Part shown: piece by piece, positions 49,368-51,777 of the stretch
Numbering within the stretch: position 1 is the stretch's first letter
How the letters are laid out: each line of letters starts with the position of its first letter
Origin: an uncultured delta proteobacterium
Lineage (GTDB): Bacteria > Myxococcota_A > Polyangia > Polyangiales > Polyangiaceae
Assembly (NCBI GenBank): GCA_963716725.1
Contig: CAVQUB010000032.1
Location: 256,001 to 320,000 of the forward strand
DNA length: 64,000 nucleotides
Direction of reading: 5' to 3'
The notes under the pieces: model-generated
Seen by the model: only the letters and a program-made list of their open reading frames with translations
The model's database searches: none
Told to the model about the DNA's origin: nothing
Program-made: the position numbers and the translations under genes

Positions 49368-49835
49368 ATGGGGTCGCGCCTCGATCGCCCCAGCGGCGTT
49401 TGGCTCGGCCGCGCGGTCCGAGTCGTGCTGGTGGTCCTCGGCGTCGCGCCCATCGTCACGCCGTTCTTCGCACAGCTGCCCGGGCTCCGCCTGATCGCGC
49501 TGCCCTTCGAGACCTGGTTCGAGTTCCAATGCCACCGCGAATTGGGGCGGTCCTTTGACCTCTTCGGGGTGGTGATGTCGGTGTGCTCGCGCTGCTTCGG
49601 GATCTACTTCGGCCTCGGGCTCGGCGCACTGGTACTCCGACCGCGCCTCGACGCCTGGCCGCTTCGCATCTGGGTGGGCCTTGGAGCCGTCGTGATGCTC
49701 TTGGACGTTGCGACCGAGGGCCTTGCGATGCGGCCGCCCTCCGGCTGGGTGAGGGTCGTCACCGGACTCTTCTTGGCGTATCCGGTGGGAGCGGCTTTGG
49801 TGCTGGCGGCGCGGGGTGAGCAATCGGAGCAGTGA
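49368..49835 (+). CDS. DUF2085-type membrane protein
   Basis: QCHR...RSF...VCSRCFGIY motif with TM helices. Confidence 0.8.
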
Positions 49836-49845
49836 GCGCGGGCTA

Positions 49846-50012
49846 GGTGCGGGGTCGGGGTCGGGGTCGGGGTCGCGTGCGGGGTCGGGGTCGGGGTCGG
49901 GGTCGCGTGCGGGGTCGGGGTCAGGGTCGGGGTCGCGTGCGGGGTCGGGGTCAGGGTCGGGGTCGCGTGCGGGGTCGGGGTCAGGGTCGCGTGCGGGTGC
50001 GCGTGCGGGGTC
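49846..50012 (+). repeat. Hexamer microsatellite array A, (GGGGTC/GCGTGC)n, with 30-bp higher-order unit
   Basis: GTGCGGGGTCGGGGTC(G/A)GGGTCGGGGTCGC repeated about 4.5 times. Confidence 0.95.
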
Positions 50013-50115
50013 AGTGAGCGTGGGGCTGCACGTTGCGGTTGGTCCTGCGGAGAACGCGCACGAAACGCGCCGCCGCGGAGCGCGGCGTCACGCTTCCTGC
50101 GCGGAGGGGGGGGGC

Positions 50116-50472
50116 ATGACCGACCGCAACACTCCGCCCCGCTTCCTACTGCCCCATCACAAGCTCGTCGCCTACCAGGTCGCGGTCGAGCTTCTGCTCG
50201 CCGTGCGCAAGGCGAATGTGCGCGATGCGAAGCTTCGCGACGAAGCCACGCGAGCCGCCAAGAGCACTTGTCTCAACTGCGCTGAGGGAGCGGGTCGCGT
50301 CACGCGCCGAGACAAGGCGCGGGCGTTTGCCATCGCACGCGGCGAGGCGGTGGAGGCCGTCGCCGCTGTCGAGATCGCTTCGCTCACGGGCGACGCGTCG
50401 GCGGAGGATGCCGCGCGGTGTGTCGCGATTGGGAATCGCGTTGTGGCGCTGCTCACGGGATTGATTCGGTAG
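50116..50472 (+). CDS. Four-helix-bundle protein (23S rRNA IVP / Avd-like fold), copy 1
   Basis: [12 protein letters not shown]...[22 protein letters not shown]...[15 protein letters not shown] matches the family pattern L..YQ.A...L.DQ..RAA.S...NIAEG.GR...F..ARGS..E; 118 aa. Confidence 0.88.
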
Positions 50473-50507
50473 GGGTTGGGGGGCTGAATCCGAGGAAGAA
50501 AATCCCT

Positions 50508-50668
50508 GCGTGCTCCGCGTGCTCCGCGTGCTCCGCGCCTTCGGGGTCGGGGTCGGGGTCGGGGTCGGGGTCGGGGTCGGGTGCGGGGTCGGGTGCGGGG
50601 TCGGGGTCGGGGTCAGGGTCGGGGTCGCGTGCGGGTGCGCGTGCGCGTGCGCGTGCGCGTGCGGGGTC
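50508..50668 (+). repeat. (GCGTGCTCC)x3 nonamer followed by hexamer array B
   Basis: Read directly; grades from GGGGTC through GGGTGC to GCGTGC, ending GGGGTCAGTGAGCG like array A. Confidence 0.95.
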
Positions 50669-50680
50669 AGTGAGCGTGGG

Positions 50681-51015
50681 CTTCGACGCTATCGAGAATT
50701 GACCCGGGTCTGCTCTCGAGAACAGACCCACCGTCGGCGGCGACCGTGCACGACGTGCTTGACAGTGTCCGATGCGGTTGCGCACCCTGGACCTGTCCCC
50801 CGGCAACGTCCGCCGGGTCCGCGTCGAGCGAAGCGGCATTCCCGCTGGGAATCGCGTAGCTCGACGCGGTGCTCGCCACGAGGTGAGCAGGCCGTCCGAG
50901 GCACCTTCGACTCTTCTTGGCGCGCGCCAAACGACCTGCTCACCCCGAGTCCGAGCGAATTTTGGGGGTCCGTTTTGGCGAGCACAAAGGGGTCCATTTC
51001 CGGCAAGCGCTGAAG
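50681..51015. mobile_element. 335-bp non-autonomous insertion element (MITE-like, IS21-like ends)
   Basis: Terminal IR CTTCGACGCT / CTTCAGCGCT(rc); two subterminal repeats ending GACCC at each end with 24-bp period; perfect 8-bp flanking direct repeat AGCGTGGG (50673-50680, 51016-51023); no transposase. Confidence 0.8.
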
Positions 51016-51113
51016 AGCGTGGGGCTGCGCGTTGCGGTCGGTCCTGCGGAGAACGCGCACGAAACGCGACGCCGCGGAGCGCGGCGTCACGCTTCCTGCG
51101 CGGAGGGGGGGGC

Positions 51114-51470
51114 ATGACCGACCGCAACACTCCGCCCCGCTTCCTACTGCCCCATCACAAGCTCGTCGCCTACCAGGTCGCGGTCGAGCTTCTGCTCGCC
51201 GTGCGCAAGGCGAATGTGCGCGATGCGAAGCTTCGCGACGAAGCCACGCGAGCCGCCAAGAGCACTTGTCTCAACTGCGCTGAGGGAGCGGGTCGCGTCA
51301 CGCGCCGAGACAAGGCGCGGGCGTTTGCCATCGCACGCGGCGAGGCGGTGGAGGCCGTCGCCGCTGTCGAGATCGCTTCGCTCACGGGCGACGCGTCGGC
51401 GGAGGATGCCGCGCGGTGTGTCGCGATTGGGAATCGCGTTGTGGCGCTGCTCACGGGATTGATTCGGTAG
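51114..51470 (+). CDS. Four-helix-bundle protein, copy 2 (identical protein to copy 1)
   Basis: Same 118-aa translation; CDS nucleotides appear identical. Confidence 0.88.
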   Translation: MTDRNTPPRFLLPHHKLVAYQVAVELLLAVRKANVRDAKLRDEATRAAKSTCLNCAEGAGRVTRRDKARAFAIARGEAVEAVAAVEIASLTGDASAEDAARCVAIGNRVVALLTGLIR

Positions 51471-51505
51471 GGGTTGGGGGGCTGAATCCGAGGAAGAAAA
51501 TCCCT

Positions 51506-51768
51506 GCGTGCTCCGCGTGCTCCGCGTGCTCCGCGCCTTCGGGGTCGGGGTCGGGGTCGGGGTCGGGGTCGGGTGCGGGGTCGGGTGCGGGGTCGGGGTC
51601 GGGGTCAGGGTCAGGGTCAGGGTCGGGGTCAGGGTCGGGGTCGGGGTCGCGTGCGGGTGCGCGTGCGCGTGCGCGTTCTGCCTCTGACTTCTGAGCAAGA
51701 AACTCTCGGCGTTTTCGGCGTTTTCGGCGTTCTCGGCGCCCTCCGCGCTTTCCGCGCTCTCCGTGCCT
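51506..51768 (+). repeat. Nonamer x3, hexamer array C, short (CTTCTGA)-type heptamer and (YYYTCSGCG)x7 nonamer tract
   Basis: Read directly between the copy-2 stop and the convergent ligase stop. Confidence 0.9.
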
Positions 51769-51777
51769 CGCCGTAGA

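Follow-up and report, generated by a model that had tools for sequence, protein, structure and literature searches.

Introduction

As far as we know, the proteins of family PF05635 have been recognized for decades only as the products of open reading frames (ORFs) in intervening sequences (IVSs) of rRNA genes, as Avd, the partner of the reverse transcriptases (RTs) of diversity-generating retroelements (DGRs), and as swarms of paralogues without an explanation. We know of no function for the free-standing members of the family. Here we describe a locus with two copies of a free-standing PF05635 gene, each encoding a predicted four-helix-bundle (4HB) protein of 118 amino acids and each set between arrays of six-nucleotide (hexamer) repeats. 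The locus lies in a 64,000-nt stretch of DNA (the window) that corresponds to positions 256001-320000 of contig C32 of the source genome, G000, which is that of a soil myxobacterium of the Polyangiaceae (7.9 Mb in 35 contigs, 84% complete, and 67-68% G+C). The explanation that we think is probably correct, with a good deal of room for doubt, is that a compact, multi-copy gene cassette of the Polyangiaceae was inserted here in a lineage-specific event and was then doubled by recombination between its arrays. Positions below are those of the window unless a contig is named, and features are on the + strand unless we say otherwise.

IVSs of 23S rRNA genes are found in helix 25 or helix 45, and their terminal inverted repeats form a stem that encloses the ORF and is a substrate for RNase III. 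The cassette in G000 differs in several ways. It lies between protein-coding genes (for a DUF2085 membrane protein and for an AMP-ligase), and an Rfam scan of 49300-52300 found no rRNA. It has no enclosing stem, as the pairing between the leader in front of the gene and the module behind it (the 3' module) is no better than in shuffled sequences, and the arrays are all direct. Also, it has direct hexamer satellite arrays and its own folded leader. There are likenesses too: the 23S rRNA IVS of Coxiella burnetii contains an ORF (S23p) of the same PF05635 family (PMC4990558). Like the cassette, such an IVS is a compact insert with a single gene and no mobility enzyme and lies within or behind a host transcription unit, and it is regarded as selfish.

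The free-standing 4HB proteins Xcc0516 (2gsc) and BT_0352 (2rld) match our protein in sequence or structure. Such proteins have many paralogues per genome, and the model TIGR02436 was itself defined from a paralogous family. The depositors of the two structures assign no function to them. In the literature, at the level of listings and abstracts, we found no published link between free-standing 4HB genes and flanking satellites, a folded leader, or insertion polymorphism, nor any published description of repeat-flanked 4HB cassettes. The locus is apparently an undescribed variant of the IVS-protein gene cassettes.

The Avd proteins of DGRs are four-helix bundles and are basic, as is the 4HB protein here, but in contrast to a DGR there is no adjacent RT among the 19 ORFs around the locus (no search aimed at template and variable repeats was made). 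Miniature inverted-repeat transposable elements (MITEs) and other non-autonomous elements resemble the cassette in being small, multi-copy, enzyme-less, and polymorphic between relatives. Unlike MITEs, the cassettes in G000 end in tandem arrays, have no visible terminal inverted repeats or target duplication, and carry a gene that is under selection. We met MITE-like ends (inverted repeats of ~36 nt) for only one 4HB cassette, from another genus (g90). Finally, integron cassettes and the minimal mobile elements and contingency-locus repeats of Neisseria offer promoter-less single-gene units, a folded site, exchange by flanking homology, and repeats that change in length. Unlike integrons, nothing attC-like was seen and no integrase was found in the 19 ORFs (neither was specifically searched for genome-wide), and 4HB cassettes are at dispersed sites instead of being arrayed at one attachment site. 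Unlike the contingency repeats of Neisseria, the arrays are outside of the promoter and coding region, and they are 70-500 bp long. Overall, the cassette seems to work most like a selfish single-gene cassette, and it is neither a 23S IVS, nor a DGR, nor (at its own ends) a MITE.

Results

The insertion site is empty in related genomes

We compared G000 to metagenome-assembled genomes (MAGs) of the Polyangiaceae and Myxococcales, among them six from the same genus (G001-G006). In G000, the insertion lies between the DUF2085 gene (49368..49835; PF09858, 2.8e-16) and a convergent gene for an AMP-binding, acyl-CoA ligase-like protein (51778..53634 on the - strand; PF00501, 3e-70), whose stop codon is at 51778. 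The DUF2085 gene is preceded by a gene of the uracil-DNA glycosylase (UDG) family (48501..49367; PF03167, 6.4e-39), and this UDG-DUF2085 pair is syntenic in all six same-genus genomes. None of the six has an array or a 4HB gene at the site. In G001, G005, and G006, the DUF2085 and ligase genes converge tail to tail, with ~10-45 bp and no other gene between them; in G002, G003, and G004, a different minus-strand gene comes directly after the DUF2085 gene. When the locus is aligned locally to the G001, G005, and G006 empty sites, the entire insertion, of ~1.96 kb, falls at 49820..51782. Specifically, homology to G001 stops at 49819 and restarts at 51783, so 1.96 kb stands in place of ~12 bp. The 3' end of the DUF2085 gene has been replaced by the insertion, which gives the protein a new tail (..GEQSEQ and then a stop codon), and the ancestral C-terminal codons can still be recognized to the right of the insert. 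An earlier note on this DNA, which was made from the sequence alone, had proposed that the unit is a mobile insertion for which an empty allele should exist, and 6 of 6 same-genus genomes do lack the cassette at this site. The note had also remarked that no transposase, recombinase, or RT is nearby. Among the 19 ORFs between 38.5 and 62 kb, none matches such an enzyme in Pfam, although 9 of the 19 have no Pfam match at all.

A second cassette in G000, on contig C11, has a hydrolase-like gene on one side and a PDZ-like gene, convergent with it, on the other. The empty junction is kept in three of the five genomes that we searched for this site, and in the other two the downstream neighbor was not found within the fetched locus. 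The stop codons of the flanking genes are a few bases apart in G001 and G005, the gap is longer in G003, and none of these three has an array. In G000, the C11 arrays extend right up to both host stop codons, and more generally, at both C32 and C11, arrays or 9-nt repeats (9-mers) reach to the host stop codons or to within ~12 nt of them. Two independent sites that are empty and free of arrays show that the arrays arrived with the cassette and were not there beforehand, so the arrays are part of the cassette rather than of the target site. For the same reason, repeat-mediated recombination would explain the amplification of the cassette and not its first insertion.

We saw no terminal inverted repeats or target duplication at the ends of the G000 cassettes. 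In the genus g90, two sites that are occupied in G095 are empty in G153. One of the insertions in G095 lies just after a terminator-like hairpin and before a convergent stop codon, and this is the one that is bracketed by ~36-nt inverted repeats. A 14-mer from these repeats, GGTCCTGGCAGCCG, is more frequent than a reversed control in G095 (171 vs. 26), in G153 (74 vs. 21), and in G190 (104 vs. 20). It is not abundant in G000 (20 vs. 13). Hence, hitch-hiking inside a MITE-like family is one route by which cassettes move in g90, and not evidently one in G000.

Where do cassettes settle? A hand tally of the 31 4HB genes for which both neighbors were called, with crude ORF calls based on GC3 (the G+C content of third codon positions), gave 19 convergent, 12 co-directional, and 0 divergent settings. 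The tally is a hint only, as at least one of the calls is wrong (L105 was scored as co-directional and is convergent by eye). It hints that cassettes settle at 3'-3' gene junctions.

Two units with a chimeric array between them

Our layout of the locus is based on direct reading of the sequence and on Tandem Repeats Finder (TRF). The order is array A, leader 1, coding sequence (CDS) 1, 9-mers, array B, a 334-bp spacer, leader 2, CDS 2, 9-mers, and array C. This bears out the earlier description of two array-flanked 4HB units between convergent genes. Array A (49847..50014; TRF periods 6 and 30, score 273) is followed by leader 1 (50015..50115; identified by a single-sequence fold, an alignment fold, and covariance model R1 at 95 bits) and by the first copy of the 4HB gene (50116..50472; an ORF of 357 nt that matches PF05635 and TIGR02436). 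The 3' module of this copy (50473..50540; TRF and nhmmer) reads ..GAAGAAAATCCCT, then three copies of GCGTGCTCC, and then GCGCCTTC; TRF reports 3.3 copies of the 9-mer GCGTGCTCC at 50508-50537 and another 3.3 at 51506-51535, in the second unit. Array B is at 50541..50671 (a TRF row at 50541-50665 plus a tail to 50671). Leader 2 (51015..51113) was identified by aligning the two copies and by covariance model R1 (95 bits), and the same alignment gives the second copy of the gene (51114..51470), with an identical CDS, and an identical second copy of the 3' module (51471..51538). Array C (51539..51676; TRF score 166 and unit listing) is followed by a second, degenerate module (51677..51777; TRF) that contains ..CTGACTTCTGAGCAAGAAA.. 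and 9-mers at 51706-51767. The cassette on C11 also has this degenerate module, behind its downstream array.

Each of the three arrays is rich in G on the + strand and grades from GGGGTC to GGGTGC to GCGTGC, yet the unit listing shows that they are unlike in length and in the order of their units, so the common polarity and the differences that the earlier note had reported both stand. Array A has a higher-order unit of 30 bp, with four GGGGTC-type hexamers and one GCGTGC. Period-6 rows are few: TRF reports just 157 of them in the whole 7.9-Mb genome, and control loci from relatives have 1 period-6 array in a total of 75.6 kb. Hence, the arrays at this locus are more than chance.

Over the first 103 nt past the stop codon, arrays B and C are the same, and B has the unit order of C. 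At its other end, array B finishes with 24 nt, extending into the 9-bp repeat at 50672-50680, that are the same as the end of array A and are absent from C. By this copy alignment and the unit listing, array B is a C/A chimera, a product of recombination between arrays. A chimera with the head of C and the tail of A implies that the doubling went by way of an unequal crossover between arrays. The pattern seen in array B is the one expected if the downstream and upstream arrays slipped, or crossed over unequally, at their GCGTGC-rich ends, and the choice of mechanism is ours. The earlier note had suggested that the unit spreads by repeat-mediated recombination. That arrays have recombined is apparent from array B; that recombination carried the cassette to new sites is not supported, as the empty sites offer no array that could serve as a partner.

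The CDS and the 3' module are identical between the tandem copies, while the leaders differ by three substitutions and by the length of a G-run (G9 vs. G8), as had been claimed. So all four of the differences are in the leader (50015-50115 vs. 51015-51113), and there are none in the 430 nt of CDS plus module. The G-run, which lies between GGAG and ATG (50103-50113 and 51102-51111), has nine Gs in leader 1, eight in leader 2, and about six in the C11 copy. It also varies in metagenome contigs, with three Gs fewer in one contig from run X4 and one fewer in run X6. This variation could be due to slippage that alters the spacing between the Shine-Dalgarno (SD) sequence and the ATG, or it could be homopolymer error.

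As a check on the assembly, we searched short-read contigs from four public metagenome runs. These contigs end at the arrays, and they leave parts of the stretch uncovered. Runs X1 and X4, which are from different studies, contain pieces of the cassette and of the MITE-like element (the 334-bp spacer) at 100% identity. In X4, one contig contains leader 1, along with 73 extra letters that are presumably array A, and a separate contig lies within the MITE-like element, which adjoins leader 2 in the assembly. Separate contigs for leader 1 and for the MITE-like element fit two copies. In X6, which has a few base differences, the tail of an array is fused directly to the leader, and the depth is zero over most of the MITE-like element (50714-50915).

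The MITE-like spacer

The spacer (50681..51014, with no strand assigned) lies in the 5' end of leader 2. It is bracketed by a perfect 9-bp direct repeat, GAGCGTGGG (50672..50680 on the left and 51015..51023 on the right, from reading the sequence), which is present once in copy 1, at 50016-50024. So the spacer has the target-site duplication of a MITE, and it also has terminal inverted repeats of ~50 nt, although these are imperfect and were assessed without a shuffle control. The first 80 nt of the spacer match four places in G005, three of which are at most ~65 nt from the end of a contig, as well as one place in G048 and one other place in G000, on C5. The spacer is unique in G000 apart from a 57-nt match on C5. 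Its two longest frames have no match in Pfam, and we saw no transposase or autonomous partner. The inverted ends, the duplication, and the matches in relatives suggest that the spacer is a separate MITE-like element, which was probably inserted after the cassette was duplicated. The spacer contains two internal hairpins, one of which gave a sub-threshold match to mir-1421 in Rfam that is surely due to chance.

The leader appears to be a conserved fold

In leader 1, an outer stem is formed by the pairing of 50032-50047 with the start codon and codons 2-5, and an inner hairpin at ~50055-50101 includes a 5-bp segment that covaries freely. The run of nine Gs is between GGAG and ATG. We aligned 25 leaders of this type from G000 and from some twenty related genomes. 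They have a common fold with 27 pairs, of which 19 show compensatory changes. Across the alignment, 96.1% of the cells are paired, as compared to 76.3% in shuffles (0 of 500 shuffles reach the observed value) and 29-37% if the partners are slid. The window leader on its own folds likewise (-61.2 kcal/mol, z = -1.5). A covariance model of this leader type, when run against G000, gives 95-96 bits for the three cassettes, 60 bits for a remnant on C33, and 41 bits for a site on C1. No Rfam family matches the leader. The compensatory changes argue strongly that the leader is a conserved folded element under selection.

In relatives, there is a second type of leader within the same protein subfamily. 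It is a perfect hairpin of 15-25 bp, directly after the array, whose 3' arm contains AAGGAGG..ATG (the SD sequence and the start codon) and whose loop is near CUGGGGUGA. Examples are at L105:2443-2502 and L003:1446-1497 and in L103 and L116. As read by eye, the stems are wholly different between copies and yet complementary. We also considered an IVS-like stem of inverted arms for the cassette in the window. The leader does have one inverted 9-mer, but the duplex of the leader with the 3' module has an energy of -64.3 kcal/mol, as compared to -66.2 +/- 5.7 for dinucleotide shuffles (z ~0), so we rejected this idea for G000.

The protein

The earlier note had related the protein to PF05635 and TIGR02436, and it passes the curated cut-offs of both models (43.7 bits vs. 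33.8 and 45.6 bits vs. 24, respectively). The AlphaFold model (pLDDT 94.6) has four long helices and a short N-terminal turn. The best structural matches are to Xcc0516 (2gsc; TM 0.84, 32-34% identity) and BT_0352 (2rld; TM 0.76), while the match to a DGR Avd chain, 8ub7_E, is weak (TM 0.65, Foldseek E = 0.64). A sequence profile search against the PDB found only 2gsc (E = 7.9e-13). The protein is basic, with a pI of 9.8, and has no match among the defense families of PADLOC. Between the C32 and C11 copies, dN/dS is 0.044 at a dS of 0.45, so the protein is under strong purifying selection.

Other copies and remnants in the genome

Whole-genome searches of G000 with tblastn and PF05635 found 4HB matches at six places: the two copies in the window, two further copies on C11, of which one is full (C11:376055-376408) and the other truncated (C11:406388), a distant paralogue on C5, and a sub-threshold match on C23. 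The full C11 copy is 97% identical to the window copies in amino acids and 90% identical in DNA. It is built in the same way: the upstream array consists of GGGGTC and GGGTGC units and grades to GAGTGC, the leader, gene, and 3' module come next, and behind them are a short array and another module. The view that the gene and its repeats form a unit gains from this, as the order of array, leader, gene, module, and array recurs at C11 and in other genera. The leaders of the window and C11 copies are 92-94% identical, against 73% identity at third codon positions. Given a dS of 0.45 between the C32 and C11 copies, these two insertions are not a recent copy of one another within the genome.

There are also decayed forms. 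At C33:4359-4722, a short GCGGCT array and a leader-like fold (60 bits) are accompanied by an internally deleted remnant of the gene that keeps only the C-terminal helix, and this adjoins a DDE_3 transposase. An orphan leader-like fold (41 bits) is at C1:162468-162627. At C6:9200-9810, there is a satellite without a gene, with five repeats of ~60 bp, 209 bp of GGGGTC and AGGGTC units (C6:9496-9704), and 9- and 18-mers; this may be a solo array that was left after a cassette was deleted.

The 3' module (an A-rich box, three copies of GCGTGCTCC, and GCGCCTT) turns out to be a small family of dispersed repeats, with 28 nhmmer matches at ~12 places in G000 (for example C1:236955-237251, C6:172861-173098, C14:1638-3037, C13:81352, and C11:282343). 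The dispersed modules are often in facing, inverted pairs, and on C14 they flank a gene for a PD-(D/E)XK protein of 143 amino acids (PF13366, GxxExxY-type).

Occurrence in relatives

With the protein as the query, we found a match in 29 of 61 relatives. At E <= 1e-20, there are matches in 61 of the 251 genomes and 28 of the 89 genera that represent the family, and a single genome can have as many as 11 copies. The nearest homologues are in other genera (up to 81% identity), and those in same-genus genomes are only ~50% identical. For a census of arrays, we ran TRF on loci fetched from relatives, with 71 homologous genes and, as controls, 21 loci centered on DUF2085. A period-6 array lies within 450 nt upstream of 43 of the 71 genes and within 700 nt downstream of 23 of them. 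Altogether, 50 of the 71 genes have a period-6 array on one side or the other, as compared to none of the 21 control loci.

The array unit is specific to the lineage (GAGGTC, GCGGTC, CGGGAG, AACGGG, GCACGG, AGTCCG, and others), and the arrays on the two sides of one gene usually share their unit. The arrays are direct at most loci; G192 has an inverted pair upstream. One MAG with long contigs has at least six copies that are 90-92% identical, and the homology that they share ends inside the arrays. Four of these copies carry a second, convergent small gene. Also, tandem pairs of cassettes are seen in other assemblies.

Two ideas about the relatives did not hold up. Strand-specific richness in G is not a general rule for the arrays but a tendency: upstream of the genes, G exceeds C on the sense strand for 40 of 62 arrays and C exceeds G for 12, and downstream the counts are 21 and 14. 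Nor does a Y1 transposase (the HUH enzymes of IS200/IS605 and RAYT) appear to be the helper, as PF01797 is found in 7 of the 29 relatives that have the 4HB protein and in 12 of the 32 that do not.

Discussion

We propose that the ancestral cassette had a co-oriented hexamer array, a folded leader of ~100 nt that would pair over the start codon, the gene for the 118-amino-acid 4HB protein, the 3' module, and a second array. One such cassette would have inserted at the convergent junction of the DUF2085 and ligase genes and cost the DUF2085 gene its last codons. The two direct arrays of the cassette would then have undergone unequal homologous recombination (or slippage) at their GCGTGC-rich ends, which doubled the unit of leader, gene, module, and array. 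Last, the MITE-like element of 334 bp would have jumped into the start of leader 2. We infer both the order of these events and the mechanism of recombination. On this account, the arrays would act as portable homology that alters the copy number of the cassette, by duplication here and, we predict, by deletion to a solo array elsewhere.

Several of our observations sit uneasily with this account. A simple recent duplication does not predict such uneven divergence, with four differences in the leader and 430 nt that are identical. The tandem arrangement comes from the assembly alone, as no read or contig that we examined spans both copies. No junction reveals how the cassette inserted, and the G000 cassettes have no visible terminal inverted repeats or target duplication. 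Arrays beside 4HB genes are frequent and not obligatory, because 21 of the 71 homologous genes from relatives have no nearby period-6 array and the distant PF05635 paralogue on C5 has no hexamer array; the earlier idea that paralogues have flanking repeats is right for 50 of the 71 and for the C11 copy and wrong for these. Because the genomes that we searched are kin, our counts overstate the number of independent cases. Finally, among the non-canonical cells of the leader fold, there are 14 A.C and 1 G.U, which fits a fold of the opposite strand better than a fold of the mRNA. As A.C cells are wobble pairs on the other strand, the fold may be under selection in bottom-strand DNA or an antisense RNA, either instead of in the mRNA or in addition to it.

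Could there be just one cassette, which the assembler expanded across the repeats? The 100% identity of the CDS and 3' module and the lack of a spanning read would be expected from such an artefact. We think that it is very unlikely, because three substitutions and one G distinguish the leaders of the copies, the three arrays all differ, and so do the copies with respect to the MITE-like element, and because the leader-1 contig and the separate contig for the MITE-like element in X4 are hard to fit to a single copy. The tandem pairs in other assemblies argue against it too. It is also quite improbable that the cassette is immobile, i.e., an old resident of the intergenic region that was lost in relatives and in whose unconstrained DNA microsatellites have grown. 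The convergent intergenic regions of these genomes do gather repeats of many kinds, and the genomes of the same genus are distant (61-73% identity in DUF2085). But the cassette is absent from the window site in 6 of 6 genomes and the C11 junction is empty in 3 of 5 (for the remaining two, we found no downstream neighbor in the fetched locus), the ancestral tail of DUF2085 is recognizable to the right of the insert, and the C32 and C11 copies share their architecture and type of array in spite of a dS of 0.45. Furthermore, the cassette is patchily distributed and multi-copy, with near-identical copies within one genome, and the control loci lack arrays.

The remaining alternatives are about what the parts of the cassette do. 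The arrays might be expression elements: the cassette would have no promoter of its own and would be read through from the upstream gene, the repeats would form an unstructured or G-quadruplex untranslated tract, and the leader would gate translation. The repeats could be a ribosome standby site, a Rho-resistant spacer on the sense strand, or a C-rich loading site for Rho on the antisense strand. In several relatives, the array ends within ~10-50 nt of the hairpin with the SD sequence and ATG, so that a promoter would not fit between them; we found no sigma-70-like promoter in 49300-52000; and in four loci that we read by eye, the array abuts the stop codon of a co-oriented upstream gene. The excess of G on the sense strand of upstream arrays would also fit. 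However, that bias is only a tendency and is slight downstream, some relatives have inverted arrays, and expression does not explain why homology ends at the arrays or why array B is chimeric. We think that this idea is rather unlikely, and it is in any case compatible with the insertion and doubling of a cassette rather than exclusive of it. A bolder proposal, which we would also call unlikely, is that the cassette is a bacterial mobile element of a new class, with co-oriented microsatellites as its ends and a 4HB gene as its only gene. The leader hairpin would be a recombination or priming site in bottom-strand single-stranded DNA or antisense RNA, and the 4HB protein, which is basic and related to Avd and to the rRNA IVS proteins, would itself recognize the hairpin or the repeats and promote insertion at 3'-3' junctions of convergent genes. 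We give very little credence to retro-mobility, in which the 4HB protein would act like Avd with an RT that is encoded elsewhere, and the arrays would be products of reverse transcription or primers for it. The protein does share the fold family of Avd (TM 0.65 to 8ub7_E) and is basic (pI 9.8), and a six-base period would suit a short template. Yet the protein resembles the free-standing proteins 2gsc and 2rld more than it does Avd, and the RT link that the earlier note had raised was not borne out: only two RT genes were found in G000, which is 84% complete, and both encode maturases of group II introns, with the RNA domains of the intron, on other contigs (C1:284420-286228 and C13:95334-96644). 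There is no PF05635 match near either of them.

If the cassette were a new class of element, then the family of IVS proteins would gain the function that it has long lacked. The locus seems tractable: it has a cassette that appears to have been active recently, clear empty sites, a protein under selection, a covarying fold over the start codon, and fast-changing arrays that would drive its copy number. More practically, these cassettes break short-read assemblies, and they flag sites in myxobacterial genomes that are prone to rearrangement.

Other features of the locus and the genome

In the Rfam scan of 49300-52300, no family reached its threshold or came near it. The matches to mir-1421 and to PrrB/RsmZ were under the gathering score, and we took them to be due to chance. 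Another idea was that the arrays and the gene are translated as one reading frame. An open frame does run from 49816 across array A and on into CDS 1, but the frame relation differs in copy 2 (with G8 instead of G9) and in the C11 copy, so we discarded this idea.

Hexamer arrays occur elsewhere in G000 as well. At C11:472529-473125, a CCGCAC-type array of 597 bp lies upstream of, or in the N-terminal part of, an ORF for a Kup-like potassium transporter, and it resembles a coding repeat that is rich in proline, alanine, and threonine. At C23:12269-19425 (L126), GCGAGG hexamer arrays and 12-mers are clustered between a Uma2 nuclease gene and a putative transposase of YhgA/Rpn-like type (PF04754 and DUF4351) that is repeated there as copies or fragments, so hexamer arrays accompany another kind of small selfish gene too.

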